Assembly: GCA_964514965.1 (NCBI GenBank)
Contig: CAZETV010000001.1
Coordinates: 889,239 to 953,238, forward strand
Length of the DNA: 64,000 nt
Direction of reading: 5' to 3'
Source of the DNA: Candidatus Hadarchaeota archaeon
Lineage (GTDB): Archaea > Hadarchaeota > Hadarchaeia > Hadarchaeales > Hadarchaeaceae
Shown piece after piece: positions 1 to 43,004 of the stretch. A program made the translations under genes and the position numbers. Numbering within the stretch: the first letter of the stretch is position 1; each line of letters begins with the position of its first letter. The notes beneath the pieces were generated by a model that saw nothing but the letters and a program-made list of their open reading frames with translations, had not been told where the DNA came from and ran no database searches.

Positions 1-270
1 GAGCTTGGGTATTATTGTTCCCCACCAATGGTTTTCCACGTTGTCTTGGATATTTTCGAATGTGACGTACGAAGCTTCGAGTGCGAGTATAATCCTAGAG
101 CCACCTATGATATCCACCCCAAAATGGAGACCACGTGTATACTGAGCTGGCCACCCCACCGCGGTTTCCGCTTTTGAATCAACCGCTTTCCAAGGGCTCC
201 AAACCAGCAAGGTACACAAGAAAACTGTGAATAGCAACAGTGCGATGCGGCGTTCTCTAAATACTGACAT
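1..270 (-). CDS. secD: Protein-export membrane protein SecD, N-terminal part (gene runs off the window start)
   Basis: Minus-strand frame starting at ATG 270..268 translates MSVFRERRIALLLFTVFLCTLLVWSPWKAV...GVDIIGGSRIILAL, a typical SecD N-terminus with signal anchor and GGxRI motif; overlaps the secF stop by 14 nt. Not in the supplied ORF track, which lists a different frame. Confidence 0.6.
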   Translation of the reverse strand, partial: MSVFRERRIALLLFTVFLCTLLVWSPWKAVDSKAETAVGWPAQYTRGLHFGVDIIGGSRIILALEASYVTFENIQDNVENHWWGTIIPKL

Positions 271-1129
271 GGTATTCCTTCCTCCTCTGTCGTTCTGCAT
301 GCCGCATAATGATTGCAGCGTTTAAGAACCAAGTGTTAAAAATGTCAATTATTATTCCAAAGATTATCACGGCTGTTAACTGGTAAAGCTGGGGGGCTGT
401 CGTTAGAATGTTGATGGCGAAGAGAGGGGTAAGTGTGCTGCCGCTCATCATCAAGCCCGTGCGCATCGCATCGACCACCTGCTCCTTGGGTTCGCCCCCG
501 ACCCGCTTGAGCACTCGGGTGGTGAGCAGGATGTTTGTGTCAACGGCGTATCCGATGAGCATCAGCAGACCTGCTACCGACGCCAGGCTGAGTTCGACAC
601 GGAACAGCGCCATACATCCGAAGACCCCCAGCAAGTCGAGCCCTACGGCGAGCAAGATTGCCCCCACCGTGACGCGGTGCCGGAAGGCGATGAAGATGAT
701 GACGCCCATCGCGATGAAGGCGCCGACCATAGCTCTTACGGCCTGCTCAGAATAGATGCTGGTGATGGTCGCTCCTCTCACCTCCACGGTGACGGAGTTC
801 TCAGGGATGCCAAATCGGGATAAAAGCATGCTTTTAATGAGGAGAGTTTCGTTTTCATTCAGTACGTTGCCGATCCCTATATCGAGACCATTTTCAACGA
901 TGTCAACATTAGCATTGTAGCCAGTTAGATTTTCAACGGAGATTTCAACAGCGCTAGCATCAGGGACATTTTCTACCCCCTGCACTCTTATTAAAGCACT
1001 TTCCCTGAAATCAGTACTGAATGGGACACTGAGCACTAACATGGAAATAGTCAGAACCGCAATCAGGGCTAGCGGAATCGCAGCTAATTGGCGGTTGCTT
1101 AAGTGCTTCTGAGGCCAAGCGAATTTCAT
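257..1129 (-). CDS. secF: Protein-export membrane protein SecF
   Basis: 290 aa multi-TM protein with SecF-like periplasmic domain and C-terminal TM bundle; adjacent to secD. Confidence 0.8.
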   Translation of the reverse strand: MKFAWPQKHLSNRQLAAIPLALIAVLTISMLVLSVPFSTDFRESALIRVQGVENVPDASAVEISVENLTGYNANVDIVENGLDIGIGNVLNENETLLIKSMLLSRFGIPENSVTVEVRGATITSIYSEQAVRAMVGAFIAMGVIIFIAFRHRVTVGAILLAVGLDLLGVFGCMALFRVELSLASVAGLLMLIGYAVDTNILLTTRVLKRVGGEPKEQVVDAMRTGLMMSGSTLTPLFAINILTTAPQLYQLTAVIIFGIIIDIFNTWFLNAAIIMRHAERQRRKEYHVSI

Positions 1130-1185
1130 CGTTAACCCTCTTGTTATTTTTAGTAGAGGATAAATAACTTGACGAGGTCGGACGA

Positions 1186-1941
1186 ATGATAGAGGAAAAC
1201 GAGCAAATCATCCTCATCGACGAGCGAGGCAGAAAATATCTTGTCAAAGCCGAGCGAAAACATCTCCACACGGATCTGGGGGTTATTGATTTGAGCGAAG
1301 CTATCAAACAAGAACCAGGAGCGAGGTTAAAATCTCATGTTGGCAAAGAATTCATTCTTCTGCGCCCGCGCATCGTTGATTACCTCCAGAAGCTCCGTCG
1401 CGTTCCCCAGATAATGCTGCCCAAAGATGCCGCACAGATCGTCGCGTATACCGGCGTGGGACCGGGAGATTTCGTCGTCGATGCAGGTGCGGGGTCTGGT
1501 GCACTGGCGATTTTTCTCGGCAACCTTGTTCGACCCAACGGACGTGTGGTGAGCTATGAGGTGCGGGAGGATTTCGCGTGCGTGGCGGAAGAGAACATCA
1601 ACATGGCAGGGCTCGGCGATATTGTGACGGTGAAGCTGAAAGATATCTATGAAGGAATTGACGAGCTTGATGTTGACTTGTTGACGCTTGACCTCCCCCA
1701 GCCCGAGCGAGTTTTGCCGCACGCGGAACGAGTCCTTAAACCTGGTGGGCACCTTGTGACATTTGCTCCCTGCGTTGAACATTTACAACGCCTCTATCGG
1801 GAGCTACCAAATTACCGCTTCGTACACTACAAGACTATCGAGTGTCTTGTTCGGGAATTCGAGGTCAAACCGAGTTGCACCCGCCCCAAGACGCGGATGA
1901 TTGCACACACAGGCTATTTAACATTCGCACGGCGCACGTAA
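1186..1941 (+). CDS. trmI: tRNA (adenine-N1)-methyltransferase, TrmI/Gcd14 family
   Basis: SAM-binding motif VVDAGAGSGALAIFL in a 251 aa protein with TrmI-like N-terminal domain. Confidence 0.7.
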   Translation: MIEENEQIILIDERGRKYLVKAERKHLHTDLGVIDLSEAIKQEPGARLKSHVGKEFILLRPRIVDYLQKLRRVPQIMLPKDAAQIVAYTGVGPGDFVVDAGAGSGALAIFLGNLVRPNGRVVSYEVREDFACVAEENINMAGLGDIVTVKLKDIYEGIDELDVDLLTLDLPQPERVLPHAERVLKPGGHLVTFAPCVEHLQRLYRELPNYRFVHYKTIECLVREFEVKPSCTRPKTRMIAHTGYLTFARRT

Positions 1942-1951
1942 CAAACAGTTT

Positions 1952-2350
1952 TTAAGACTTTATTAAGCGTCCTTTGAATCCGTAATAAATGACACCGTCT
2001 TGGCTCTCCTCGCCCATCCGCCTGAAGACTATTTCAACCTCATCGCCCATCTTGATCTCATCTATGTTGCAGTCGGTGATCTGCGCAGTCAAGCGTGGCC
2101 CATCTTCGAGTTCGATGATTGCGAGCACGTAGGGCACTTGATCTTCAAAACCTTCTGCAGCAACGTGTATCACCGTGTAAGAGAGAACCTTGCCTTGGCG
2201 TTTGAGCCGGTAAGGTTCGAGCTTACCCATCCTCCTGCAGAAGGGGCAGATTGAGCGGGGCGGAAATAAGATTTTGTTGCAATTTCCGCAGCGTGCCCCT
2301 ATGAGGTTATATCGGTTTGGTATCTCTCTCCAGAAACGCGGAACGGCCAT
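1952..2350 (-). CDS. DUF35 OB-fold/zinc-ribbon protein, partner of archaeal thiolase and HMG-CoA synthase
   Basis: CxxC...CxxC zinc ribbon (CGNCNK...CPFC) followed by OB-fold-like region; start set to ATG at 2350 (MAVPRFW), 2 nt after the thiolase stop, rather than the longer ORF-track start at 2407. Confidence 0.7.
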   Translation of the reverse strand: MAVPRFWREIPNRYNLIGARCGNCNKILFPPRSICPFCRRMGKLEPYRLKRQGKVLSYTVIHVAAEGFEDQVPYVLAIIELEDGPRLTAQITDCNIDEIKMGDEVEIVFRRMGEESQDGVIYYGFKGRLIKS

Positions 2351-2351
2351 A

Positions 2352-3515
2352 TTAGTCACCTCGCCTAAACACATGCACCACCGCAGTTCCTCCCGAGCCA
2401 CCGACATTGTGTGCTAACCCAATCTCCGCTCCATCGACTTGGCGCTTGCCCGCCTCGCTTCTAAGCTGTTGCGTGATTTCCACGGCTTGAGCGATGCCAG
2501 TAGCGCCCACGGGGTGCCCCTTACCCTTGAGCCCGCCACTCGTGTTTACAGGGATTCGTCCACCTATCGCGGTCTCGCCCTGCTCGGTCACTTTGCCACC
2601 TTCACCTTTCTTGCAAAACCCTAGATCCTCGATTGCCATGAGTTCGGCTATTGTGAAGCAGTCGTGAACCTCTGCTAGATCGATGTTATTCGGCTTGACA
2701 CCAGCCATTTTGTACGCTGTTCGTGCAGCTTCAATGGCAGCTTGTAGACTCGTGAGAGATGTACGGCTGTGGAGCGAGATAGTATCACTCGCTTGGCCGG
2801 TACCAACTACCAAGATTGGGGTATCTGTGAGTTTTCGCGCCTTCTCCGCGGAGGCGAGGATTACGCAGGCAGCGCCGTCGGTAATCGGGGAGCAATCGAG
2901 CAATTTCAGGGGCAGGGTAACGGGTGGAGACTTCATCACGTCATCGACTGTTACCTCCATCTGATATTGCGCGCAGGTGTTGAAACACGCGTTGTGGTGA
3001 TTTTTTACAGCCACTGCCGCCATTTGTTCTTCTGTGGTTCCAAATTCGTACATGTGGCGGCGAGCCATCAGCGCATAGAGACCTGGGAAGGTGGCACCTA
3101 CGAATACCTCCCATTCTTGGTCAGCTGCTGTCGCAAGTGCTCCGGTGGCTGCCCCTGTGAGAACATCAGTCATTTTCTCTATGCCAGCCGCGACGACGAT
3201 ATCGTGGAGGCCCGAGCCAACGTCGATTACCGCTTGGCGGAGTGCAAGTCCGCCTGACGCGCAGGCTCCCTCGACGCGCGTGGATGGGAGGGGTACAAGT
3301 CCAGCGTGGTCTGCGACAATTGAGGAAATATGTTCTTGGCGGATGAACTGACCAGAGGACATGTTTCCCACGTAAATCGCGCCTATCTGTTTTCCGTCGA
3401 TTCCAGCATCCTCAATCGCACGAGCACCTGCTTCCATCATCATCTCTCTAAAAGAGACATCCCAGAGTTCGCCGAACTTCGTCAGTCCAACGCCTATTAC
3501 TGCAACATCGCGCAT
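2352..3515 (-). CDS. Acetyl-CoA C-acetyltransferase (archaeal thiolase)
   Basis: 387 aa thiolase-fold protein with active-site Cys context (EGACASGG) and C-terminal thiolase motifs (HNVGGSG). Confidence 0.85.
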
Positions 3516-10730: not shown

Positions 10731-11669
10731 TCACTGTTGTGACAAGGAGAGAATCTGCATACGTGTATCGGAAAGTTTTCGCGCGATGAGTTCCGCTACC
10801 TTCATCATCACCAGATATCCTCGATGGTGATTTTTTTTGAAGATTTTATCTACCAATTCATCAGCGACAATAGTAACAACTTTTGCCTTGTCCAAACAGC
10901 GCGCGTGAGTAGTGAACTTGCGAGTGCGAAGTAGAGAGGGATAGCCAAAAAGCCTACCTTTGGTCATCGTATAGACGGAAATTCTCTTTCCAGGGTAAAT
11001 TTCTATTTCGATGGAAACCCTTCCTTCCAGGGACATGTATATTTTTTCTGCTTTGTCCCCCTCTTTGAAAATCAAGTCCCCCTGTTCGAACTCCTCGACT
11101 TTTGCCAGTTTGGCAATGTCTTTCAGTTCTTCCAATGTTAAAAACTCAAAAATATCCATTTCCTTCAAAATTTCCGGTTTCACTGCCATCTTACCCTCTT
11201 CTTGATTGTTTATTTCTTTTAAAACTTTTTCGGCTAGAGTAGGCAATTTTTTTTCGATGGTTTTGCTCAATCTGTCGCCCCATGAAACTTTCTTTGGTTG
11301 TATGCCGACAATTCTCACATTTTTAAAATCGTAACCAATTTTCTTCCCCACCTTGATGACATCGATTAAATCAATTTCATGTAGTGAAAATTTCTCGCTG
11401 CTTGGCATGGCGAGGATCTGCTCGGCGTCAAAGCTAGCAATATAGCCTGGTTCTTTTCCCATATCCGCGGCGTCTACTAGCACTACCTTTTCAAAGCCCT
11501 TCATCTCTTCCAGAAACTCGAATCCAAAAATAGCCCCATCTACAAGTTTTATCTTATTATCTAGGACTCTGCTCTTCAAGTACTCCACACATCTTATGCC
11601 CACACCTTCATCTTTCAGTAGGATATTTCCTAGGCCGACGATGAGTTTGCGCTCATTCAACGAAATCAA
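10731..11669 (-). CDS. Hydrogenase maturation endopeptidase (HycI/HybD family) fused to a C-terminal cyclic-nucleotide-binding (CAP-like) domain
   Basis: N-terminal 155 aa carry protease motifs (LIVGLGNILLKDEGVGI, VVLVDAADMG, SLHEIDL); C-terminal 150 aa carry a cNMP-binding beta-roll signature (FKEGDKAEKIYMSLEGRVSIE...KGRLFGYPSLL). Single uninterrupted ORF directly downstream of the hydrogenase large subunit. Confidence 0.7.
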   Translation of the reverse strand: MISLNERKLIVGLGNILLKDEGVGIRCVEYLKSRVLDNKIKLVDGAIFGFEFLEEMKGFEKVVLVDAADMGKEPGYIASFDAEQILAMPSSEKFSLHEIDLIDVIKVGKKIGYDFKNVRIVGIQPKKVSWGDRLSKTIEKKLPTLAEKVLKEINNQEEGKMAVKPEILKEMDIFEFLTLEELKDIAKLAKVEEFEQGDLIFKEGDKAEKIYMSLEGRVSIEIEIYPGKRISVYTMTKGRLFGYPSLLRTRKFTTHARCLDKAKVVTIVADELVDKIFKKNHHRGYLVMMKVAELIARKLSDTRMQILSLSQQ

Positions 11670-12984
11670 CTTTCAGCATGTGGGTTGAACATGAAATGCA
11701 TGGGTCATAAGCTCTGACTAGCATCTCCAATAAACGGGTGATCTCCTTTTTTGGTTTGTCTAGTATCTCCGGTACCAATCTCCGAATATCTCCTTCAATG
11801 TTGGCTAGATTTTGTGCCGTTGGAATGATGCAGTTCGCCGATTCGATTAGACCGCGATCATTAAGTTTGTACTCGTGGATTAGGAGCCCTCTAGGGGCCT
11901 CAACTATGCCTACACCCCAACTCCTTTTTATGTTGGGAAGTTTTACTGACCAACCTGCGATTGGCGGCCGTTTTTCCCTCTCATCCTTTATCCCCTGCGA
12001 TAATAACTCCTCAATCAATTCTACCATGGACTCCAGACAATGTACGAGTTCAACTATTTGGGCGAAAGTTATGTGGTAAGGATTATAGCTTAGGGTCTCC
12101 AATCCAAGTTCCTCCGCTGTTTCCCTCGCCTTTGGCGTCAGTTGCTTGAAGTTGTTGTTGAATCTGGAAAGGGCACCCACCATATACGGTTTCATAGGGC
12201 CTAATGCATGCTTTGCTGTGGAATAATCTACGACATTTTCGCGTATCTTGTGTTTGTAGTCTCTCTGTTGATATTTGTCAGTTTCAGAAGATTTTATCGT
12301 CCCATCGTAGAATGCGTACTCATCGGGGTGGGTAAAACAAACGTAGTCGGTTTTCCTTTCGAATTGGGGGGCTTTAAATTTAGAGAAAAATTTGACTGTA
12401 CTTGGAACATCTTTTTCTAAAAATTGTTTTATTTTGGAGAGTAGTTCCCGCATTTGGTCATTGGTCACCAAGTTAGTGAAGCCGTCCACGGTCATGGAGA
12501 TAGGATGTGTATGTCGACCCACAATTGTATCACAGATATCGTGGGCAAGTTTTTTCCAGCTGATGCCTGTTTTCACAACCTCTGGAGAGGTAGAAGCTAG
12601 GGGGATTATTGAGTGTGTTCCAACAAAATCTGGGGCAGCGAGGAAGAAGCAGTGGAGGGCATGAGAATCCATAATTTCTGCAGCTGTTAGAATTTTCCTC
12701 AAGGTCTCCGTTTGCCAAGTGGGTTTAATGCCAAGTGCATCTTCAATTGCCTTTATGGAGGCATTCGTGTGTGATATAGAACAGATGCCACAAATACGGC
12801 TGACGATGTGAACAGCTTCAGAAAAACGCCGGCCGGCCAGCATCGCTTCAAAAAAGCGAGGTGACTCGGCAATTTCGAGTTTGACCTCTTTCAACTCCCC
12901 TCTTTTTACATCTACAACGATGTTCCCGTGACCTTCAATTCTGGCGATATGATGGACATGAACGTTGATGTCTTTTCTACTCAT
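11653..12984 (-). CDS. hydA: [NiFe] hydrogenase large (alpha) subunit, sulfhydrogenase-like (group 3b-type)
   Basis: N-terminal RxCGxCxxxH motif (RICGICSISH) and C-terminal DPCxxCxxH motif (DPCISCSTH). Confidence 0.85.
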   Translation of the reverse strand: MSRKDINVHVHHIARIEGHGNIVVDVKRGELKEVKLEIAESPRFFEAMLAGRRFSEAVHIVSRICGICSISHTNASIKAIEDALGIKPTWQTETLRKILTAAEIMDSHALHCFFLAAPDFVGTHSIIPLASTSPEVVKTGISWKKLAHDICDTIVGRHTHPISMTVDGFTNLVTNDQMRELLSKIKQFLEKDVPSTVKFFSKFKAPQFERKTDYVCFTHPDEYAFYDGTIKSSETDKYQQRDYKHKIRENVVDYSTAKHALGPMKPYMVGALSRFNNNFKQLTPKARETAEELGLETLSYNPYHITFAQIVELVHCLESMVELIEELLSQGIKDEREKRPPIAGWSVKLPNIKRSWGVGIVEAPRGLLIHEYKLNDRGLIESANCIIPTAQNLANIEGDIRRLVPEILDKPKKEITRLLEMLVRAYDPCISCSTHMLKVDFVE

Positions 12985-13730
12985 CTTACCAACCCACTCA
13001 ACCCGTTGTACATACGATAAAACCTCAACTTATCTTCGGCGGATATTCCATATTTCTCCAAGACCTCTTCGAAAGCGTCCAAATTGGGGTCGGGGATTGG
13101 TCCTCGACATCCTTCACAAGCATTCCCCACAGATGGACAGGCCGCCCCGCAGCCTGCTCTCGTTATCGGTCCCATGCAAACAATAGGGTTCGGTTTATGG
13201 TATAGGCAGACGTTTCCTTTCATTTTACACTCAACGCAGATAGGATAATCCGGGACAAAAGGTTTCGTGCCGTTTAAAAGGGAGGCTGTGACACGCAAAA
13301 ACTCCTTTTTATCGATGGGACACTCCGGGATAAAGTAATCCACCTTAATGATCGCATCGACAGGCTGGGCCAATATGGAATCAAAAACCCATGCCTTGTC
13401 CCCGTAGACCCTCTTTCTGATCTCTAGCTGATTGTGAAAGTTTTTAATGGCGTTGATTCCAGCGATATGAGCGCATGCGCCCAATGCCACACATATTTTC
13501 GCCCTCTTTCTAATTTTCCTGACCCTCTCTATATCTTGAGAAGTAGAGATCGAACCTTCGATGAAAGCAATATCGTAATCCTGTCCCTTGTAACTAGATG
13601 CCTCACGAAAGTTTACTATATCCACCGATTCGAATAGGTCCAGAAGTTTTTCTCCTAAGGAAAGGACGGTCAACTGGCAACCTTCGCAGCAGGTGAAGTC
13701 AAAAAATGCCACTTTTGGTTTCTTCATCAT
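12981..13730 (-). CDS. hydD: [NiFe] hydrogenase small (delta) subunit
   Basis: 249 aa with proximal cluster cysteines (FFDFTCCEGCQL) and further Cys ligands. Confidence 0.8.
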   Translation of the reverse strand: MMKKPKVAFFDFTCCEGCQLTVLSLGEKLLDLFESVDIVNFREASSYKGQDYDIAFIEGSISTSQDIERVRKIRKRAKICVALGACAHIAGINAIKNFHNQLEIRKRVYGDKAWVFDSILAQPVDAIIKVDYFIPECPIDKKEFLRVTASLLNGTKPFVPDYPICVECKMKGNVCLYHKPNPIVCMGPITRAGCGAACPSVGNACEGCRGPIPDPNLDAFEEVLEKYGISAEDKLRFYRMYNGLSGLVR

Positions 13731-14542
13731 ATAGCCTCTGGCAAATTTTTAATTTGATTGTAGTTGAAAACTGGGCCATCTTGACAAACATAGATGTTGT
13801 TGATTTGGCAATGCCCGCATTTTCCTACTCCACATTTCATCTTGCGCTCCAATGATATCCAGATGTTTTCATCAGGAACTTTGCGATTTTTCAGTTCCCT
13901 GATGACAAAGCGATACATGACTGGTGGGCCGACAATGGCCGCTTGGGTTTTTCTAGGATCGAACTGAATATGGGGGAAAAGGTTGGTGATGACCCCTACG
14001 TTGCCCTGCCATGTTTCGTCTCCGACATCAACCGTTACATGATACTCGACATCATCTCTTTCTTCCCAGCTATTCAACTCCTCTTTGAAAAGAAGTTCCT
14101 GTGGTCTCCTCGAACCGTAGAGGATGTAGACTTTTCCATAATCTTCTCTGGAATTTAAAACGGTCCAGATGAAAGAACGAAGGGGGGCCAGCCCAAGCCC
14201 TCCTGCTATGAAGAGTATGTCTTTTCCCTTGAAATACTTAAGTTCAAACCCTTTACCGAAAGGACCTCGAATTCCAATTTTATCTCCTGATTTCCTGCTG
14301 TGCAGAGCTCTGGTGACATTCCCAATCGCCCGTACACATAGTTGAAATGTCGGTAAGCTGGAGGGAGCGGACGAGATGGAGATGGGAGCCTCTCCAACGC
14401 CAAAAACCGATACCTCCACAAATTGTCCTGGCTGATAGTTGAGATTTTTTCCTGACAGAAGCTCGATTTCAAACAAACGTTCCGTTTTGGTAAGTTGTTC
14501 TATTTTGTTTATTCTTGCTATCTCGGGCGCATAGATCGTCAT
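13727..14542 (-). CDS. hydG: Hydrogenase gamma subunit (FAD/NAD(P)-binding with 2Fe-2S)
   Basis: 271 aa ferredoxin-NADP-reductase-like fold with C-terminal Cys cluster (CGVGKCGHCQ). Confidence 0.75.
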   Translation of the reverse strand: MTIYAPEIARINKIEQLTKTERLFEIELLSGKNLNYQPGQFVEVSVFGVGEAPISISSAPSSLPTFQLCVRAIGNVTRALHSRKSGDKIGIRGPFGKGFELKYFKGKDILFIAGGLGLAPLRSFIWTVLNSREDYGKVYILYGSRRPQELLFKEELNSWEERDDVEYHVTVDVGDETWQGNVGVITNLFPHIQFDPRKTQAAIVGPPVMYRFVIRELKNRKVPDENIWISLERKMKCGVGKCGHCQINNIYVCQDGPVFNYNQIKNLPEAI

Positions 14543-15633
14543 ATCCGCTTCCTCTTCTCATAAAGTTCATTTTCGATGTCTAAAGGATCAACAATCTTCG
14601 TTAAGCAAGCTTTTCCACATCTTCCACATCCAGTGCAAAAAGACTTCCCCCATTTTTCAAAAAGGTACCAGTCCTTCCGGTTGGTTCTGTGACGCAATCG
14701 AGTACCCCTTTCTTCTCTGAATATCTCTCCTGAGGCCACCCTAGTGAAATCGGTAAGAAGACAACCGTCCCAGAAGCGAGAACGATTCCCCCGCTTCAAG
14801 TTTAACTCGATATAATCTCTTACATCAAAGCAGTAACAGGTGGGGCAGACCATGTTGCAAGACCCGCAGTTGAAACACTTTGCTCCATGCTCATCCCATA
14901 CACGGCTGTCGTAATTTTCTTTCAGTAGCTTGGGTAGGTCTTCAAGTTTGGGCTTAAGCTTTCGCTGCTGTTTATTAAAGAAATTGTCTCTTCTCCTTCG
15001 GATTTTTCCCAATTCCTTGGCATCTGATCGGGTCGCTTTTTTAGCAATCCCAGAAATAAGAGATTCTCCTCTTTTGGAACCTACTTCTACAAAGAAGTTG
15101 TCCCCCATATCGGTTAAGAAAAGGTCAAACCCCTCCCGCGGAAGTACGGACCCCTTGCGGTAGCAGAATGACTCTGGGGAGCAGGGGAGGAGACATTCCG
15201 CTCCGATTATAGTTAGATACCCCCGCTTCTTGAGATAATTTTCATCCAAATTTTTTTCCGAGAAAACTTTATCCAAAAGTGCAGTTCCATTTATGTCGCA
15301 AGGATGGATCCCGAGTAAAATCACCGGTTTTGCATCCATCTTGGCCTCTACCTTGACCTCATCGTCAACTTCGTATTCGGTCAATTCTTCTTCTTGTGGG
15401 AAAAGAAAAGTTTTTGGAGGGATGACTGTTTGAGGACCTTCCCAGAGAATCTCTTTCGTGGACTTTATCGGTTTAAAATTAGCTTGATTTTCCTGCTTCA
15501 CGGGGGCTACTACTTCTTTTCCGTCTCTAATTATTCTATCAATTAACTTTAAAAAATCTTTTTTGGTTATCGAATATTTCCCCATTTTTTCACCATTCTG
15601 GATTTCCAAATTCACTGCTATCCAAGCCATCAC
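14539..15633 (-). CDS. hydB: Hydrogenase beta subunit (iron-sulfur)
   Basis: 364 aa with multiple 4Fe-4S Cys motifs (CFNCGSCNMVCPTCYC, CTGCGRCGKAC). Confidence 0.75.
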   Translation of the reverse strand: MMAWIAVNLEIQNGEKMGKYSITKKDFLKLIDRIIRDGKEVVAPVKQENQANFKPIKSTKEILWEGPQTVIPPKTFLFPQEEELTEYEVDDEVKVEAKMDAKPVILLGIHPCDINGTALLDKVFSEKNLDENYLKKRGYLTIIGAECLLPCSPESFCYRKGSVLPREGFDLFLTDMGDNFFVEVGSKRGESLISGIAKKATRSDAKELGKIRRRRDNFFNKQQRKLKPKLEDLPKLLKENYDSRVWDEHGAKCFNCGSCNMVCPTCYCFDVRDYIELNLKRGNRSRFWDGCLLTDFTRVASGEIFREERGTRLRHRTNRKDWYLFEKWGKSFCTGCGRCGKACLTKIVDPLDIENELYEKRKRI

Positions 15634-16202: not shown

Positions 16203-16877
16203 TCATTTGAAAATCTCACTTTTTTTGCCAATTTCCTTTACGATTTTTCCATCATTGATCAGATAAGTTCGGTTACATATTTTCATTAAATCTAAATCAT
16301 GTCCTGCCACTACCATCGTGTGGTGTTTTTTAAGTTCTTTTAAAAGTTTCATAAACTCTTTTTTTATCCAAGGGTCGAGAGCCAATGTTGGCTCATCAAG
16401 AACCAAAATCTCAGGCTTCATGGAGAGTACGGTTGCTATTGCGACTCTTTTCTTTTCCCCGTAGCTTAAGTGATGCGAGCTTCGGTTTTCTAACCTTTCA
16501 AGACCCACAGCTTTTAGTGCTTTTCTAACTCTCCTTTTTACTTCCCATTCACTGAGCCCCATATTTACTGGCCCAAACGCGACATCTTCGAAAACCGTCG
16601 GCATGAACATTTGGTCATCTGGATTTTGGAACACAAGCCCCACTTTGCTTCTGACTTCCCTTGTTTTTTTGCGTAAATCCATCCCGATAACGCGTACACG
16701 ACCTCTTTGTGGCTGTAGGATGCCGTTTAAGTGAAGAAGAAGAGTAGATTTTCCTGAGCCGTTGGGGCCTATTAAGCATATGCTCTCCTCTCTTTCGATA
16801 TCTAGGTTAATGCCATGTAACGCTTTCGTACCATCAGGATAGGTGTAGTGCAGATTTTTTATTTCAATAGCTTTCAT
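16203..16877 (-). CDS. cbiO: ECF/CbiO-type ABC transporter ATPase (cobalt/nickel)
   Basis: Walker A (GPNGSGKST), ABC signature (LSYGEKKR) and Walker B (LVLDEP). Confidence 0.8.
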   Translation of the reverse strand: MKAIEIKNLHYTYPDGTKALHGINLDIEREESICLIGPNGSGKSTLLLHLNGILQPQRGRVRVIGMDLRKKTREVRSKVGLVFQNPDDQMFMPTVFEDVAFGPVNMGLSEWEVKRRVRKALKAVGLERLENRSSHHLSYGEKKRVAIATVLSMKPEILVLDEPTLALDPWIKKEFMKLLKELKKHHTMVVAGHDLDLMKICNRTYLINDGKIVKEIGKKSEIFK

Positions 16878-17674
16878 ACCACCACTAATATTAGTATTAG
16901 AAGTAAGAAAAAGCTAGAGAAGAAGAAGGTATCCGATCTCTTGAATTCAAGTTTGTGTGTTAGCTTAATTTCCCCATTGAACCCTCTGGATCGCATTGCA
17001 GTATAAATGCGCTCTCCTCTTTCATAGCTTTTTGCGAACAATGTTCCAATCATGTATCCAAAGAGTTTTACATTTTGTAATCTGCTAAGACTAGGTGCCC
17101 TTGCATCGCGTGCCCTGCGCATTCGCTCGAACTCATCTATAGCGATGAAAATAAAGCGGTACATAAAAGAGAGAATCATTACGAAGATTTTTGGCAGTTT
17201 CAGTCTTTGAAATCCGTTTAGGAGTTTCGGAAACGGGGTTGTTGAAGTAAGAGCGATCATGGCAAGCACACAAAGCCACGATTTTACAAGCACGTTGAGA
17301 AAAATCAACAGGGCTGAGTGGGTTATTCTAAAAATGCCAATATTGTATGATCCAGCTGCGTCACCACCGCCTAAGAACGGCAACCCTATAGCAACGAGCA
17401 GCACAAATGGAACTATCACCGAGGATCTCTTCAGGATAAATCTAAGCGGAACTCGTGAGATTAGGATAATCGAGAAGACTAGTGCCCCGTAAAAGGCGAA
17501 TTTCGGGGCCTGAGTTATTGGAGTGAAAATTACGAAGAAAAGGAAGGAAAAAAGCGCGATTATTTTCACTCTTGGGTCTAAAACATGTATTGAACTATGC
17601 AAATTACTATGCTGGTCTAGAAAATGATGCTTCATATGCTGTTTCAGCGTCTCCGTTTTAAGATTGTACCCCAA
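16874..17674 (-). CDS. cbiQ: Cobalt/nickel ECF transporter transmembrane component CbiQ
   Basis: Multi-TM 266 aa protein translationally coupled to cbiO and cbiN. Confidence 0.7.
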   Translation of the reverse strand: MGYNLKTETLKQHMKHHFLDQHSNLHSSIHVLDPRVKIIALFSFLFFVIFTPITQAPKFAFYGALVFSIILISRVPLRFILKRSSVIVPFVLLVAIGLPFLGGGDAAGSYNIGIFRITHSALLIFLNVLVKSWLCVLAMIALTSTTPFPKLLNGFQRLKLPKIFVMILSFMYRFIFIAIDEFERMRRARDARAPSLSRLQNVKLFGYMIGTLFAKSYERGERIYTAMRSRGFNGEIKLTHKLEFKRSDTFFFSSFFLLLILILVVV

Positions 17675-17937
17675 CCCAGAGTTATACCGATAATGATAAA
17701 CACTCCGACTAGACCCGCTAGCGATGTGGCAAGTGCTTTATTTTCAATGCCGGGGATGGCATAGTCAGGCATCGGAGAGTGCATGGCTTCTTGTCCCTCA
17801 GCTTTCTCTGCGAATCCTTGATCCTCTGCAACTCGTTCGAGACCATCTGGCTCGGAGGAGGCGAAAAGCGATAGCACACATGCCATAGAGATCGCGATGA
17901 CAAGTCCGGCGATCCACCATTTTTCTTTGAGTTTCAT
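17644..17937 (-). CDS. cbiN: Cobalt/nickel transport protein CbiN-like small membrane protein
   Basis: 97 aa with two TM helices, located between cbiM and cbiQ. Confidence 0.55.
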   Translation of the reverse strand: MKLKEKWWIAGLVIAISMACVLSLFASSEPDGLERVAEDQGFAEKAEGQEAMHSPMPDYAIPGIENKALATSLAGLVGVFIIIGITLGWGTILKRRR

Positions 17938-17945
17938 TTTTTCAC

Positions 17946-18581
17946 CTAGATTTTTGGTAGCTTCAGCAAGTCTGGCCGCGTCTTTAGGACGAAGCTAATT
18001 ACCGAAATGGTGATGGCGGCCTCGATGATGCCGATTATTACGTGGATTCCTACCATTGCCGGCAGAGCTATCCCAAGAGGCGAAGTTCCTGAAGCTGCTA
18101 ACTCAAATGCGCATGCCGCCGACGCGAGCACCACAGCGATCCAAGCAGCGACGCCAGCTCCAATAATCATGCCTCTGTCCCCTTTCACAGCTTTTTTAAC
18201 ACCCTGGTAGATGAAATAGCCAAGGATGGTGCCAATAAGCCCCATGTTGATGATGTTCGCGCCCATCGTAGTTATCCCTCCATCTTGGAAGAATATTGCT
18301 TGTACACCAAAGATTGACCCCATTACAATCGATCCAGCCAGCGGGCCGACAAAAACAGCGATGAGTACTCCGCCGAGCATATGTCCGCTGGTGCCGCCAG
18401 CTACTGGCACGTTTAACATTTGTGCTGCGAAAATGAATGCTGCTAGCACGCCTAGTAGTGGAACGTGCCTATCTCCAAGTTTTTTATTAGTCCTCCAAAC
18501 TGCGACGACCAGAATCAGCATAGCGACTACCCACAATGGTGCCCATACCGCAACGCTTAGAAATCCATCTGGTATGTGCAT
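17946..18581 (-). CDS. cbiM: Cobalt/nickel ECF transporter substrate-capture component CbiM/NikM
   Basis: Start set to ATG at 18581 giving the N-terminus MHIPDGFLS; the ORF-track start at 18680 would abut the nikR start. Confidence 0.8.
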   Translation of the reverse strand: MHIPDGFLSVAVWAPLWVVAMLILVVAVWRTNKKLGDRHVPLLGVLAAFIFAAQMLNVPVAGGTSGHMLGGVLIAVFVGPLAGSIVMGSIFGVQAIFFQDGGITTMGANIINMGLIGTILGYFIYQGVKKAVKGDRGMIIGAGVAAWIAVVLASAACAFELAASGTSPLGIALPAMVGIHVIIGIIEAAITISVISFVLKTRPDLLKLPKI

Positions 18582-18597
18582 AATGGCCCCATCTGGG

Positions 18598-18627
18598 AGT
18601 AATACTTTTTGGTATAAAAATATTACT
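18598..18627. promoter_or_regulatory. Candidate NikR operator: AGTAATA-N16-TATTACT
   Basis: Perfect 7-bp inverted repeat with 16-bp spacer, in the 97-bp divergent intergenic region between cbiM (start 18581) and nikR (start 18679); the spacer contains a TATA-like GGTATAAAAATA. Confidence 0.45.
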
Positions 18628-18678
18628 GTCATAGATAACTTGAAAAACACTTGGCAACGAAGTTTGCAGGGAGTTGGC

Positions 18679-19083
18679 ATGCCGAAAAAGATAACGCGAG
18701 TGAGCTTGACGTTGCCTCAAGATTTGTTGGATGAGCTCGATTGCTCTCTTAAAGCTCAAGGTTATACAAGTCGTTCGGAGGCGATCCGTGATGCTTTACG
18801 AGATTTTTTGGCGAGCTACAAGTGGCGCAAGGAGCTTAAGGGCGAACGTATCGGGGTCGTAATACTAGTGTACGAGCACGATGTCCGAGGGCTGATTGAC
18901 GCACTCATGGATATCCAGCACGTGAGTTCGAGTATAATAAGCGCAGTCCAGCATTTGCATGTCGACGCCAAAAACTGCTTGGAAACACTGATTGTCAAGG
19001 GCCCCTCAGAGGAGATCCGCAAGCTTGTCGATCGCTTGGGCGCCCTGCGAGGCGTCAAACAGGTCAAGCTGGTGGTTGTTTGA
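18679..19083 (+). CDS. nikR: Nickel-responsive regulator NikR
   Basis: 134 aa; N-terminal ribbon-helix-helix (KITRVSLTLPQDLLDELD...GYTSRSEAIRDALRDFL) plus C-terminal ACT-like metal-binding domain with His/Cys (EHD...HVD..C). Start taken at ATG 18679, not the 285-aa ORF-track extension. Confidence 0.8.
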   Translation: MPKKITRVSLTLPQDLLDELDCSLKAQGYTSRSEAIRDALRDFLASYKWRKELKGERIGVVILVYEHDVRGLIDALMDIQHVSSSIISAVQHLHVDAKNCLETLIVKGPSEEIRKLVDRLGALRGVKQVKLVVV

Positions 19084-19667
19084 AATTAAATGAATTTTTG
19101 GAAAGGCTTAACAACCTCAAGCGAATCTCCCGCACGGGCTGGTTGATTTGCAACGTCCCACTCAGCGAGGTCGAGGATGTGGCGCAGCATACCTTCGACG
19201 TTACGGCAATAACCCTGTTACTTGCCGATGAACTCGAGCGTAAAGGCAAGAAACTTGACAGGGAGCGAGCTCTAAGCATGGCGGTCGTGCACGATTGGGC
19301 TGAGGTCGAAGTCGGAGATTTTCCCTACACGGCGTTGAAATACTTAGGTCCCGCTGGTACGAAGAAACGCATAGAGAGGGGAGTACTTGAGGATATTCTG
19401 AATGGGCTGCCGAATAAAGAAAAATACCTAAAGCTTTGGTTGGAATATAGCGAGAAACGCACTCTCGAGGCTAAGCTCGTTCATGTGGCAGATTATATAT
19501 CAATGCTCGTGCAGGCGGTCAAATATCGTGAGCGAGGCAATCGTTCTAAGGAACTCGATGAGCTTTGGCATGCGGTTCGCAAGGATATCAAGATTTATGG
19601 AAAGGAATTGCCGCCAATAATGGCGTTGATAAAAGAATTTGACAGACGCTATTCTAGTCTCCAATGA
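19080..19667 (+). CDS. HD-domain phosphohydrolase
   Basis: HD motif context (HTFDV...HDWAEVEVGD); TTG start overlapping the nikR stop. Confidence 0.6.
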   Translation: MKLNEFLERLNNLKRISRTGWLICNVPLSEVEDVAQHTFDVTAITLLLADELERKGKKLDRERALSMAVVHDWAEVEVGDFPYTALKYLGPAGTKKRIERGVLEDILNGLPNKEKYLKLWLEYSEKRTLEAKLVHVADYISMLVQAVKYRERGNRSKELDELWHAVRKDIKIYGKELPPIMALIKEFDRRYSSLQ

Positions 19668-19713
19668 ACAAAATTATTTCATTTTTTGGGGCTGGAATTT
19701 CTCACATTTAAGA

Positions 19714-21660
19714 TTAAGTTTTAACGGATTGTTTTTCTATCATTTTTCTGAATTCTTCATATTCACGTTTTACTTCCTCTACAGAAGCTCCATCCTCCAA
19801 TGTGGTGACATCACCTAATGGTATCTGTGAGGCGATTGCTTTCAAAACTCTTCTCATAATTTTTCCGCTTCTTGTCTTCGGAAGTTTTGAAACGAAGTGT
19901 ATTTCCTCTGGTTTCGCGACAGGCCCAACAGAATTTCTTAAGTGTTTTGTTATTTCTTTTTTAAGTTCTTCGCTGGGTTCATATTTTTTTCTTAAAATAG
20001 CGAAAACTACAATAACTTCTCCCTTAATTTCATCCGGTTTGCCGATCACTGCGGCCTCTGCTACCGCTGGGTGGGAAACAACTGCGCTTTCTAGTTCCAT
20101 GGTGCCTAACCTGTGTCCCGCGATTTTTAAAACCTCATCCGCCCTGCCGAGCAGCCAGAAGTATCCTTCTGAGTCTTTTATACAATAATCTCCCGTATAG
20201 TAAACATTTGGAAACTTAGACCAGTAAGTTTGCTTATAACGCTCGGGGTCCTTGTATATTGTCATAAACATGCCTGGCCAAGGCTTCTTTATAATGAGGT
20301 AACCTCTTACGCCTGGATTCGCAGGTGTGCCGTTTTCTTCCACCACATCGGCGTCAATGCCTGGTAACGGGAATGTTGCAGATCCAGGTTTAAGAGGGAC
20401 CAATCCTATACCTGGCGCGGGTGAAATCATCACACCTCCTGTTTCTGTCTGCCACCAAGTGTCGACTATGGGGCAACGTTCTCCGCCTATGTTTTTGAAA
20501 TACCATCTCCATGCCTCTGGGTTTATTGGCTCTCCTACAGTGCCTAAGATTGATAGGCTACTCAAATCGTGTTTTTTAGGCCATTCTTCTCCGTATCTCA
20601 TGAACATGCGTATGGCTGTTGGCGATGTGTAAAAGATTGTTACCTTATATTTTTCGATTATTTCCCACCACCTGTCTGGATTTGGATAATCAGGTGCTCC
20701 TTCGTGTACAACTATAGAAGCCCCGTGCATTAGTGGTGCGTAAACAATTGAGCTGTGCCCGGTCACCCATCCCACATCAGCAGTGCACCAATATACGCTG
20801 TCTTCTTTTATGTCGAAAACCCATTCATAGATGGAATTTATAAAGGTCAGGTAACCTCCTGTGCTGTGGACTATGCCTTTTGGTTTTCCTGTCGTGCCTG
20901 ACGTATATAGAATGTAAAGTGGATGAGTGCTTTCTACAAGCTCTGGGAGAATATATTCCCCGACATCTTTTTTCGTGATTTCGTGGTACCATAAGTCTCT
21001 CCCTTTCTTCATGTTAACCTCTTGGCCTGTTCTTTTCACCACTATTACTCTCTCAATTGAGGGGGTATTCTCCACGGCAGCGTCTACTATCTCTTTTAAT
21101 GGTATTTTTTTACCTCTTCTGAAGCTGCCATCTGCCGTTATGAGCACTTTTGCTCCCGTGTCGTTCACACGATCCGCGAGTGCTATTGAGCTGAATCCAG
21201 AAAATATCACGGTGTGTATTGCGCCTATTCTTGCTGCTGCCAACATAGCAATGGGTAGTTCGGGGATCATAGGCAAATAGAGGGCTACCTTATCCCCGAC
21301 TTTGACTCCGAGTTTTTGAAGTGCTGATCCTAAACGATTTACCATCCGCCCCAGTTGCGAGTAACTTAATGTTCTTTCCTCACCGCCCTCTCCTTCCCAG
21401 TATATTGCTACTTTGTTTCTCCTCCAAGTTTTCAAGTGTCTATCGATACACAAAGAAGAGGCGTTGAGCATTCCTCCAACGAACCATTTTGCAAATGGAG
21501 GATTCCATTCAAGTACCTTATCCCATGTTTTGAACCATTCAAGTTTTCTCGCTTCTTGTCCCCAAAACTCTTCTGGGTTATCTAAGGACTTTCGGTACAT
21601 ATCTTCATATTTCTTTATCGGCCAATATTTCAGCTCTGCCGGGAGAGATTCTGGTTGCAT
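19714..21660 (-). CDS. acs: Acetyl-CoA synthetase (AMP-forming)
   Basis: 648 aa with adenylate-forming motifs (YTSGTTGKPKG, YWCTADVGWVTGHS, TGDY, PKTRSGKIMRR). Confidence 0.9.
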   Translation of the reverse strand: MQPESLPAELKYWPIKKYEDMYRKSLDNPEEFWGQEARKLEWFKTWDKVLEWNPPFAKWFVGGMLNASSLCIDRHLKTWRRNKVAIYWEGEGGEERTLSYSQLGRMVNRLGSALQKLGVKVGDKVALYLPMIPELPIAMLAAARIGAIHTVIFSGFSSIALADRVNDTGAKVLITADGSFRRGKKIPLKEIVDAAVENTPSIERVIVVKRTGQEVNMKKGRDLWYHEITKKDVGEYILPELVESTHPLYILYTSGTTGKPKGIVHSTGGYLTFINSIYEWVFDIKEDSVYWCTADVGWVTGHSSIVYAPLMHGASIVVHEGAPDYPNPDRWWEIIEKYKVTIFYTSPTAIRMFMRYGEEWPKKHDLSSLSILGTVGEPINPEAWRWYFKNIGGERCPIVDTWWQTETGGVMISPAPGIGLVPLKPGSATFPLPGIDADVVEENGTPANPGVRGYLIIKKPWPGMFMTIYKDPERYKQTYWSKFPNVYYTGDYCIKDSEGYFWLLGRADEVLKIAGHRLGTMELESAVVSHPAVAEAAVIGKPDEIKGEVIVVFAILRKKYEPSEELKKEITKHLRNSVGPVAKPEEIHFVSKLPKTRSGKIMRRVLKAIASQIPLGDVTTLEDGASVEEVKREYEEFRKMIEKQSVKT

Positions 21661-21812
21661 TTACAAACCACCGAGGTTTAAATTCAATTTTATTGGATTA
21701 AAACTTTTTTACTACATTATATATTTATCTTTCCAAGCAAATTGGACCAATAGAGTCAGTTATTAAGACCTTTAGTCATGTCTAAATATCTACTAATTGA
21801 AAGTGCGTTAGA

Positions 21813-23681
21813 ATGGACCAGATTTCAATCGTCTTTCAGCCTTATGGCAAGAGGGTTCGCGCGTCTAACGATGATGACATACTGGAGATTGCAAATAGGG
21901 CTGGAATAAACATCAGGAGTATATGCGGCGGTAAGGGGAGCTGCGGCAAGTGCAAGGTGATAATAAGAAAAGGGAGGATCGATTTTAGATACAATCAAAA
22001 GGAAAAGCTTCTGACGGAGGAAGAACTCTCAAGCGGGTATGTGTTGGCTTGTTTAACCCGCTGCGAGTCGGACTGTGAAGTGCTGGTTCCACCTGAGTCT
22101 AGAATTGAGGGGCAAAAAATACTCTCGGACGCCACGATACCTGAAATCCAGATTGACCCCGCGGTTAAGAAATTCTTTATCCCGCCCAAGCAACTCCGCG
22201 GCCAATCCGCCGAACAGCTCATGAAGAGCTTTCAATCGTTTACCAAGGCGCGCAGCTTCTCGGACGAAGTCGGTTCAAAGCTAAAATCTATCGCTGACCG
22301 ATGCGGCGAGGAAGGAGCAACCCTGACCGTTTGGTTGTTGAAGCCTACGAAGATTTTGGATGTAGAGATCGGGGATACATCGAAAAGGAACTTCGGCCTT
22401 GCAATCGATATCGGGACAACAAAGCTTTCTGCATATCTTGTGGACCTAACGACGGGGAAAATCCTCGGAAGTGAATCCGATTACAATCGACAGCTGATGT
22501 ACGGTGAAGACTTGGTTTCGAGAATTGGGTATACGGTGGACAGAGAAGATGGGATAAAAAACATGCAGAGGGCGGTACTTAATACAGCTAATAACTTGAT
22601 CAAAAGGCTAGCCTCGAATCACGGTGTGGAAGCGAGTTGGATAACTGACGTGTGTACTGCAGGGAACACCGTGATGACCTATTTTTTCCTGAATAAGGAT
22701 GCATCTCCCCTCCTCGAACCGAACGCTGAGGTATCAAAGCAATCGATGATTACGGATGCTCAGTCCATAGGTCTTGGGGTTAATTCCGAGGCAAAAGTTT
22801 ACTGCCTGCCTTGCGTGAGCAGATTTTTAGGCGGGGACATCATTGGGGACGTCCTGCTCTCGCGAATCTACGCGTCTGAAGAAATCTCTTTGCTTTTAGA
22901 TATCGGAACAAACGTTGAGGTCATCTTCGGGAGCAAGGGATGGTTCCTTTCTACGACTGCGGCTGCGGGTCCGGCTTTTGAAGGGTGGGGAATAAAATTC
23001 GGAATGAGGTCGGTCGAAGGAGCAATAGACCATGTGAAGATTGACCCGGAGACTCTAAAGGCGAGCTTTACAGTTATCGGAGGGGTGAAACCGAGGGGGA
23101 TATGTGGTTCGGGCTTGATAGATGCGATGAGCGAGATGTTCAGGAATGGTATCTTAGATAGCTTGGGGAAGGTGAATATGAAGCTGGGCTCCCCCTACGT
23201 TCGGAGCGGCGAGGAAGGGTATGAATACGTTGTGGCGCCAGCTTCTGAAACGGACATCGGCAAGGATATAGTCATAACCAAAAAGGACATTCTAAACCTC
23301 ATCGATTCCAAGGCCGCGGCTTGCTCCTCCATCAGCGTTATAATGAAAAAAATGAATTTGTCCGTGCACGATGTTGCCAATGTGTATGTTTGTGGTGCGT
23401 TTGCCAACTACATGGACCTGAACAGCGCGATGGCGATAGGGCTCCTGCCGGAATTCCCAAAAGCCCAAATGAAGTTCCTCGGAAACGGTTCGGTAGCCGG
23501 GGCTTATTTGACATTAATTTCTCAGGAGCAGAGGAAAAAAGCAGATGAGATAGCAAGCTTGATGGCTTACTTCGATTTGCTCAAGGATGCGGACTTTATG
23601 GATGAATATACGGCGGCCTACATGCTTCCCGGAAAACGTGAGCTTTTCCCGACATGGTGGGAAGCGAGCCGGAAAAGGTAA
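21813..23681 (+). CDS. Reductive activator of corrinoid iron-sulfur protein (RACo-like): 2Fe-2S ferredoxin plus ASKHA ATPase
   Basis: N-terminal plant-type ferredoxin Cys motif (CGGKGSCGKCKV...C) followed by an ASKHA-like ATPase domain (DIGTTKL...); convergent with cdhE. Confidence 0.7.
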   Translation: MDQISIVFQPYGKRVRASNDDDILEIANRAGINIRSICGGKGSCGKCKVIIRKGRIDFRYNQKEKLLTEEELSSGYVLACLTRCESDCEVLVPPESRIEGQKILSDATIPEIQIDPAVKKFFIPPKQLRGQSAEQLMKSFQSFTKARSFSDEVGSKLKSIADRCGEEGATLTVWLLKPTKILDVEIGDTSKRNFGLAIDIGTTKLSAYLVDLTTGKILGSESDYNRQLMYGEDLVSRIGYTVDREDGIKNMQRAVLNTANNLIKRLASNHGVEASWITDVCTAGNTVMTYFFLNKDASPLLEPNAEVSKQSMITDAQSIGLGVNSEAKVYCLPCVSRFLGGDIIGDVLLSRIYASEEISLLLDIGTNVEVIFGSKGWFLSTTAAAGPAFEGWGIKFGMRSVEGAIDHVKIDPETLKASFTVIGGVKPRGICGSGLIDAMSEMFRNGILDSLGKVNMKLGSPYVRSGEEGYEYVVAPASETDIGKDIVITKKDILNLIDSKAAACSSISVIMKKMNLSVHDVANVYVCGAFANYMDLNSAMAIGLLPEFPKAQMKFLGNGSVAGAYLTLISQEQRKKADEIASLMAYFDLLKDADFMDEYTAAYMLPGKRELFPTWWEASRKR

Positions 23682-23698
23682 GGATACATTTTCGTCGT

Positions 23699-26294: not shown

Positions 26295-26315
26295 CTCATC
26301 CCTCTAAAGTAATGA

Positions 26316-28228: not shown

Positions 28229-28230
28229 GT

Positions 28231-40959: not shown

Positions 40960-41030
40960 AGAATCCCAAGCGTAAATTTTTGGTCTGAATTTATAAATGC
41001 GAGAGTGCCAATAAATTTGGAGGTTTGGTC

Positions 41031-41858: not shown

Positions 41859-41860
41859 AA

Positions 41861-42967: not shown

Positions 42968-43004
42968 GGTTCAAAAATCAGGTTTCTAAAACTAAGATTA
43001 AAAT

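Follow-up and report, generated by a model that had tools for sequence, protein, structure and literature searches.

A fused gene at the end of a hydrogenase operon

The 64,000-nucleotide stretch of DNA analyzed here, in the following referred to as the window, belongs to contig CAZETV010000001.1 (positions 889,239 to 953,238) of a Candidatus Hadarchaeota genome assembly (GCA_964514965.1). On its minus strand, at 10731..11669, it carries an open reading frame (ORF) in which a hydrogenase maturation endopeptidase is joined to a cyclic-nucleotide-binding (CNB)-like module. The initial annotation of the window had described this ORF as a single gene directly downstream of the hydrogenase operon hydBGDA, and had proposed that the C-terminal half lets a small-molecule signal gate hydrogenase processing or that the protein doubles as a regulator. 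The ORF indeed reads through 312 aa from a TTG start codon to the stop codon at 10731-10733 without any internal stop; the public gene call of the identical protein (P0001) comprises 309 aa, starting from a TTG three codons further in. All of the motifs quoted in the initial annotation (GLGNILLKDEGVG, VLVDAAD, SLHEID, FKEGD, and LFGYPSLL) were found in the ORF. Features of the tRNA or Rfam type were not detected anywhere in the window.

Profile searches supported the assignment of both halves. The Pfam model PF01750 (HycI) matched residues 25-152 with 80.7 bits along profile positions 1-130 of 130, and PF00027 (cNMP_binding, for cyclic nucleoside monophosphate (cNMP) binding) matched residues 192-274 with 46.4 bits, whereby the Pfam cut-offs are 23 and 27.5 bits, respectively. 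The NCBIfam superfamily model for hydrogenase maturation proteases, TIGR00072, scored 123.6 bits against a cut-off of 47.45 bits, and the C-terminal half showed a weak, sub-threshold NCBIfam similarity to the effector domains of CRP, FtrB, and NtcA. Thus, the N-terminal half is an endopeptidase of the HycI/HybD type and the C-terminal half has a cNMP-binding fold, each with a match above its curated cut-off. On the minus strand the endopeptidase half (residues 1-155) occupies 11205..11669, a linker with the sequence QEEGK (residues 156-160) occupies 11190..11204, and the CNB-like module (residues 161-312), which has no helix-turn-helix (HTH) domain, occupies 10734..11189.

Alignment of the endopeptidase half to Escherichia coli HybD (PDB entry 1cfz) by phmmer gave a full-length match (E 1e-16), in which the metal ligands E16, D62, and H93 of HybD align with E21 (11607-11609), D66 (11472-11474), and H97 (11379-11381) of the fusion protein, all on the minus strand. 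D20, D66, and H97 are invariant across the fusion proteins found. As judged from its sequence, the protease half gives no sign of degeneration, and the positions for metal (Ni) recognition appear intact. It shares the family profile and the three metal-ligand positions with E. coli HybD and HycI and their archaeal homologues (MEROPS family A31), and, as is the case for these endopeptidases, a gene for a large subunit with a C-terminal extension adjoins. In contrast to the known HybD/HycI enzymes, which are stand-alone proteins of about 150-165 aa, the window protein carries in addition a CNB-like module of 152 aa on a tether of five residues. Two further proteins, P0077 (450 aa) and P0098 (391 aa), have an N-terminal HycI domain followed by another 230-290 aa, and may represent further kinds of protease fusion.

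The structural genes of the hydrogenase lie upstream of the fusion on the same strand, each stop codon overlapping the next start codon: hydB for the 4Fe-4S subunit (14539..15633), hydG for the flavin adenine dinucleotide (FAD)/NAD(P)-binding subunit (13727..14542), hydD for the small subunit (12981..13730), and hydA for the [NiFe] large subunit (11653..12984), as assigned with Pfam and NCBIfam models. The last codons of hydA overlap the start of the protease, which places the fused ORF directly after hydBGDA, as initially annotated. Since the best NCBIfam matches of the four subunits are sulfhydrogenase I/II subunits, the operon is of the group 3b type. HydA, the substrate of the protease, ends in DPCISCSTH-MLKVDFVE and thus has an eight-residue tail to be removed (11656-11679) beyond His435. 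The endopeptidase would remove this MLKVDFVE tail after His435, following the insertion of nickel.

Origin of the fusion in Hadarchaeota and elsewhere

In a scan of one genome per species, the gene was seen only in metagenome-assembled genomes (MAGs) of Hadarchaeota/Hadesarchaea. It is fused as in the window at two further loci, L002 (91% amino acid identity) and L001 (P0002, 89% amino acid identity), and the cluster 2 members P0007 and P0008 have the same uninterrupted frame. In four sister species (L003, L004, L005, and L006 (DG-33)) there are two separate genes instead, one for the protease (155-156 aa) and one for the CNB-like protein (152-155 aa), with a distance from stop to start of 1-11 nt. 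In L003, the stop codon is followed by one nucleotide and an ATG (...CAAAAGGGGGAGTAAAATGGCA); L004 and L006 share the junction ...CAAAAGGGTGATTAAAATGACA; and in L005 the stop is followed by 11 nt, including a Shine-Dalgarno (SD)-like GGGGGGT, and an ATG (...AACTAAAGGGGGGTAAGATGGCA).

The corresponding junctions are ...CAAGAAGAGGGTAAGATGGCA in the window and CAAAAAGAGGGTAAGATGGC[G/A] in L001 and L002, and compared with L003 and L004 the spacer of these fused genes lacks one nucleotide. The comparison with L001-L006 shows that the linker was once intergenic and is now translated. The former stop triplet TAA (11191-11193, minus strand) is kept in all three fused junctions but lies out of frame, GG-TAA-G being read as GGT AAG; an SD-like GAGGG (11194-11198, minus strand) has become part of the linker QEEGK; and the former start codon of the stand-alone CNB-like gene of 152 aa is now the ATG of Met161 (11187..11189, minus strand), which is a possible internal start. 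A length change of a single nucleotide in a spacer of about 12 nt would have shifted the stop to another frame and linked the two proteins via a flexible tether of five residues. With the old ribosome-binding site and start codon persisting, the free module may still be made.

A profile search in 5.8 billion protein clusters yielded about 75 stand-alone clusters of the Hadarchaeota type (142-157 aa, 57-83% identical to the C-terminal half of the window protein) and only two fused ones, P0001 and P0002. We conclude that the fused form is derived and confined to a narrow sub-clade. It is a young, rare, and lineage-restricted joining of adjacent genes, and two separate genes are the normal state both in the sister Hadarchaeota and in Bacteria.

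As the fused and the split state are one nucleotide apart in length, we considered whether the fusion might be a frameshift that arose in sequencing or assembly. However, the in-frame junction is present in at least three independently assembled, divergent genomes or contigs and, in addition, in P0007 and P0008. The window, L001, and L002 differ at many nucleotides yet share this junction, which means that the frame is not an assembly error. The artefact explanation was therefore rejected, and we regard it as extremely improbable; the possibility, named along with the initial annotation, that a frameshift had merged two genes is thereby settled in favor of one gene.

More distant fusions emerged when 1.84 billion representatives were scanned exhaustively with HMMER. 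Taken together with the 5.8 billion clusters, the survey of homologous fusions proposed along with the initial annotation returned only four fusion clusters (P0001, P0002, P0015, and P0016) from three lineages. P0015 (327 aa, 30% identity) is a full-length fusion encoded by the last gene of an hdrCBA-mvhDGA operon (L007). P0016 (323 aa, 27% identity), likewise a full-length fusion, is encoded by the last gene of a bacterial-looking hydBGDA operon, which is followed by hypA (L009). The SD sequence and the ATG are intact at the junctions of both distant fusions (CTGGAGGAGGGGAGCATG in L007 and AAAGGAGTCACGCTATG in L009) and are thus kept in all three fusion lineages, across which Met161 is invariant; moreover, the stand-alone protein P0084 (150 aa) is almost the same as the C-terminal half of P0016. 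The conserved junctions together with P0084 imply that this gene pair has recently been fused by stop loss three times independently. In L007, the region 1-3435 in front of the Hdr-Mvh operon that ends in P0015 codes for a Cache/HAMP histidine kinase, a hybrid kinase, and a stand-alone receiver, which may exert a dedicated two-component control of that hydrogenase. A literature search gave no description of protease-CNB fusions, but only an incidental co-mention of the two (PMC13332983).

The CNB-like module and its degenerate cassette

The module belongs to a coherent family of proteins that are about 150-170 aa long and have no HTH domain; 671 proteins matched its profile at E<=1e-10. The family signature consists of the cassette FG[WY][SP]xL[LV]xPxx[FYA]T and a C-helix with GYLVM...RLxDTRxQL, and both elements are present in the window protein. 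The member with a solved structure is PDB entry 3MDP (Gmet_1532 from Geobacter metallireducens, a structural genomics target), a stand-alone, full-length homologue of the module of about 141 aa that matched the family profile over its full length with 112 bits. Its cassette FGVSSLIKPYHYTSSARA is of the same type as that of the window's family, lacking both the Glu and the Arg. It differs from the window protein in being unfused and in having Val where the family has Tyr or Trp. We know of no published function for 3MDP, and no description of a 3MDP-type family as a hydrogenase-associated group was found in the literature.

An AlphaFold2 (AF2) model predicted the module with a predicted local distance difference test (pLDDT) score of 84-96 as N-terminal helices, an eight-stranded beta-roll, and a C-helix of 30 residues that resembles the dimerization helix of CRP. 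In a Foldseek search with this model, 3mdp was the best full-coverage match (template modeling (TM) score 0.88, root-mean-square deviation (rmsd) 1.9 A, 31% identity), and matches to CRP, GlxR, and PKA domains had E values of about 1e-10. For the full protein the predicted TM score (pTM) was 0.56, with a pLDDT below 50 for the tether residues 156-159. The model gave no confident inter-domain interface, which is weak evidence as the input alignment held only three sequences over the N-domain, where confidence is correspondingly weak. The fusion is thus predicted to resemble two beads on a string, connected by a disordered tether.

The initial annotation had raised the question of whether the phosphate-binding cassette is intact. 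In CRP, E72 contacts the ribose 2'-OH and R82 the phosphate of the nucleotide. In the alignment of the module to E. coli CRP, these two residues are replaced by Y243 and F252 within the cassette FGYPSLLRTRKFTTHARC (residues 241-258; 10896..10949, minus strand), and the loop is one residue shorter. The same holds for the family: among 132 members the position of Glu72 is occupied by Tyr (77), Trp (54), or Phe (1), and that of Arg82 by Phe (77), Ala (38), Tyr (7), Ser (6), Leu (3), or Trp (1), so that a Glu at the former or an Arg or Lys at the latter position occurs in none of the 132. On the basis of this alignment and these counts, an intact cNMP cassette was rejected.

These observations bear directly on the idea that the C-terminal half binds cAMP or cGMP and allosterically gates the protease, which would bring hydrogenase activation under second-messenger control. 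The PF00027 match above threshold and the canonical CNB fold are in line with such a role. However, both nucleotide-contacting residues are gone in 132 of 132 family members, the cassette lacks one residue relative to CRP, and a scan of approximately 45 window ORFs, which outside the 4-16 kb region covered those of at least 150 aa, revealed no nucleotide cyclase domain. Furthermore, the tether is predicted to be disordered, and, since the two parts are separate proteins in most genomes, intramolecular allostery cannot be the ancestral mechanism. We therefore consider gating by cAMP or cGMP very unlikely in view of a degenerate cassette, a young fusion, and a disordered tether. Of the wider proposal that a small molecule gates processing, the part concerning cAMP and cGMP falls, and what stands is a minority hypothesis in which another ligand would act through a module tied to maturation or activation.

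The suggestion that the protein also controls transcription of the hydrogenase operon, as a regulator of the CRP/FNR type, fared no better. It might draw on the weak NCBIfam likeness to the effector domains of CRP, FtrB, and NtcA and on the "CRP-like" labels that many family members bear in databases. However, there is no Pfam or NCBIfam match to HTH_Crp_2 or a similar HTH domain, the CRP-family matches cover the effector domain only, and the protein ends with its C-helix at residue 312; such a double role is hence most improbable. Altogether, the lack of the Glu/Arg pair in the cassette, of a detected cyclase, and of a DNA-binding domain makes both cAMP/cGMP gating and a CRP-type regulator unlikely. 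The initial annotation was thus correct in its observation but over-reaching in its interpretation.

Genomic contexts and the role of the module

All of the 13 sampled contexts of the family, a small and non-random sample, are soluble group-3 [NiFe]-hydrogenase operons of the 3b or Hdr-Mvh type from Archaea and Bacteria. In 10 of the 13 the module gene directly follows the protease gene or is fused to it, and in the remaining three it stands beside structural genes instead. In Hadarchaeota (window and L002-L006) the order is hydBGDA-protease-CNB. The 3b-type contexts further include hydBGDA-hycI-CNB in a MAG labelled Candidatus Margulisiibacteriota (L024), the fused form in L009, hydBGDA-CNB in L012, where the module gene follows hydA in an operon without a protease gene, and hydB-CNB-hydG-hydD-hydA-protease-hypAFCDE on a plasmid of Burkholderia savannae (L020). 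Among the Hdr-Mvh-type contexts, (hdrCBA-)mvhDGA-hycI-CNB occurs in Chloroflexota-type bacteria (L015/16, L017/18, L019, and L022), hdrCBA-mvhDGA-CNB in L023 with the module gene directly after mvhA, and the fused form in L007. In L014, two tandem CNB genes precede an hdrC-like gene. Within the limits of this small, non-random sample, the association with hydrogenase operons holds consistently in two domains of life and for two enzyme classes.

Some of these loci show further peculiarities. In L014 (172-1127), the tandem CNB-like genes code for 153 and 158 aa and lie immediately upstream of the hdrC-like Fe-S gene, and thus present a duplicated module. In L023 (7001-7948), the 3' end of the CNB-like gene overlaps, in antisense orientation, the protease gene of a second, convergent hydrogenase cluster. 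The CNB protein of L024 (P0215; JGI 3300028032, a 226-kb contig) is 65% identical to the Hadarchaeota one, and the operon is followed by DUF1858, glutaredoxin, and thioredoxin-reductase-like genes; it may be the result of an inter-domain transfer or of mis-binning.

The position next to the protease gene could mean that the CNB-like module serves the maturation endopeptidase, and not the mature enzyme, as a dedicated partner that recruits or gates the protease at the last and irreversible step of maturation. In that case the module might bind the precursor of the large subunit, or a ligand that is not a cyclic nucleotide, and the fusions would constitute Rosetta-stone evidence of a physical protease-CNB complex. 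The location immediately downstream of the protease gene, or fused to it, in 10 of 13 contexts, spanning Archaea and Bacteria as well as the 3b and Hdr-Mvh types, the three independent fusions, each with the protease, and the stop/start coupling of the two genes in Hadarchaeota all speak for this explanation. However, the module gene follows hydA in L012, where the operon has no protease gene, it directly follows mvhA in L023, and it is located between hydB and hydG, four genes away from the protease, in L020 as well as in R. equi (PMC13332983). In addition, the joining of adjacent, coupled genes takes a change of one nucleotide only and so can be near neutral, AF2 predicted no confident interface between the two domains, and most proteases of the HycI family function without such a partner. 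We therefore regard a dedicated partnership with the protease as possible but doubtful.

The closest functional analogue of the window module appears to be HoxI (PHG093) of the soluble NAD+-reducing [NiFe]-hydrogenase of group 3d from Cupriavidus necator/Ralstonia eutropha H16, which is encoded in the operon hoxFUYHWI. To our knowledge, HoxI is the only described accessory subunit of such a sort, and it is usually seen as a peculiarity of one bacterial enzyme. Both proteins are small, lack an HTH domain, have a cNMP-binding fold, and are encoded right after the protease gene (hoxW in the case of HoxI) at the end of a soluble group-3 operon; on pHG1 the order is hoxH, protease, the gene for the CNB-domain protein (hoxI), and hypA. 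In our reading neither HoxI nor, to judge from its cassette, the window module would be a cyclic-nucleotide sensor. HoxI has been described as a homodimer that is bound to the diaphorase module and provides an NADPH activation site (PMC3702609), and activation by NADPH is seen only in the HoxI-containing enzyme (PMC3702609; PMC3189943).

There are also differences. The HoxI cassette keeps the Glu and has a His at the Arg position, whereas the window's family has Tyr/Trp and mainly Phe, Ala, or Tyr, respectively. HoxI is unfused to HoxW in the data seen, and it serves a 3d enzyme, whereas the window's family serves 3b and Hdr-Mvh types. In hhalign comparisons with the family profile, HoxI scored 58 (17% identity) and E. 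coli CRP, used as a control, scored 62 (19%). HoxI was therefore rejected as a member of the family, because its score was no better than that of this generic control, and the likeness lies in gene order and fold, not in specific homology.

By contrast with HoxI, the B. savannae protein from plasmid pMSMB0266 (WP_059583937) is a clear family member (hhalign 99.7%, E 3e-26). This protein and that of R. equi (WP_013415449) are bacterial, are 28-31% identical to the window module, and are encoded among the structural genes, apart from the protease. The published R. equi group 3b cluster lists a cNMP-domain gene and has the same gene set as the Burkholderia cluster (PMC13332983); a cNMP-domain gene in group 3b clusters has also been mentioned in passing, under the name HoxI (PMC12319191).

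With slightly better than even confidence, we favor the reading that the two genes at the end of a group 3b-type operon have genuinely and recently become one and that the C-terminal module of the product is a HoxI-like hydrogenase accessory; the module is thus probably a hydrogenase accessory rather than a cyclic-nucleotide switch. It would dock onto the hydrogenase, probably as a dimer formed via the C-helix, and might bind another ligand (e.g., a pyridine nucleotide) or a protein surface, thereby playing a HoxI-like part in assembly or (re)activation. The fusion would then mainly reflect adjacency and co-translation and would not be a new allosteric switch on the protease; it might be tolerated because its two parts are synthesized together and work on one and the same complex.

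Several points weigh against the accessory reading. As the hhalign scores (58 against 62 for CRP) and the Glu kept in the HoxI cassette indicate, a specific homology to HoxI is unsupported. A diaphorase module that binds NAD(P)H is absent from Hdr-Mvh-type enzymes, and a strictly HoxI-like role involving NADPH can therefore not hold for all members of the family. The three independent fusions, all of them to the protease, could make the protease the true partner, and the missing interface counts little in this respect, with three sequences behind the AF2 N-domain. Finally, the context sample of 13 is non-random, and the role proposed for the family is drawn from sequence and gene context.

A further possibility goes beyond the accessory reading. 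The module might be an unrecognized, widespread maturation factor of soluble group 3b/3c hydrogenases that complexes with the endopeptidase, its aromatic pocket sensing a metabolite (e.g., NAD(P)H) or holding the tail of the large subunit. We consider this rather unlikely; if it were true, a ligand would control the final, irreversible proteolytic checkpoint of maturation, with the three fusions as the Rosetta stone.

Beyond the hydrogenase operon, the window harbors a nickel-enzyme neighborhood (16203-30573). It comprises cbiO (16203-16877, minus strand), cbiQ (16874-17674, minus strand), a NikR homologue (18226-19083, plus strand), an AMP-forming acetyl-CoA synthetase gene (19714-21660, minus strand), a RACo gene (21813-23681, plus strand), and the cdh genes for carbon monoxide dehydrogenase/acetyl-CoA synthase (CODH/ACS; 23699-30573, minus strand). 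This arrangement suggests a nickel supply and a NikR regulon common to the hydrogenase and CODH/ACS. In the NikR ORF of 285 aa, the ribbon-helix-helix (RHH) and NikR_C domains are confined to residues 158-284 and the N-terminal 157 codons overlap an ORF on the opposite strand (17946-18680); thus, the true start of NikR is probably near 18697.

A second gene cluster (39119-48118) for tetrahydromethanopterin (H4MPT)-linked one-carbon (C1) reactions and methanofuran biosynthesis is present in this non-methanogen lineage. It codes for MfnB, the 4-(hydroxymethyl)-2-furancarboxaldehyde phosphate (4-HFC-P) synthase (39119-39850), an MfnA-like decarboxylase (39829-40959), Mtd (41025-41858), Mch (43868-44809), an FwdC-like GXGXG protein (44806-45627), Ftr (45624-46520), and an FwdA-like amidohydrolase (46511-48118), a gene set that indicates an archaeal Wood-Ljungdahl pathway. 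Four sizeable ORFs gave no Pfam match at E<=1e-5 (31953-32681, minus; 41861-42967, plus; 48115-49386, minus; and 57108-57578, minus). The ORF at 48115-49386 codes for 423 aa and adjoins the FwdA-like gene on its upstream side, in the place expected for an FwdB-type subunit.

In the fusion, two translationally coupled genes were joined by a change of one nucleotide, which makes it a neat example of how genes fuse but not a new regulatory principle as such. For the genes of the family, the automatic labels "cAMP-binding" or "CRP-like regulator" are almost certainly wrong. The module stands for a separate family that is much more widespread than HoxI and is firmly built into operons of the group 3b and Hdr-Mvh types in both Archaea and Bacteria. 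The family is therefore a candidate for a so far overlooked factor in the assembly or activation of group 3b/3c enzymes, which are important for the cycling of H2 in the subsurface and for the biotechnological regeneration of NAD(P)H.

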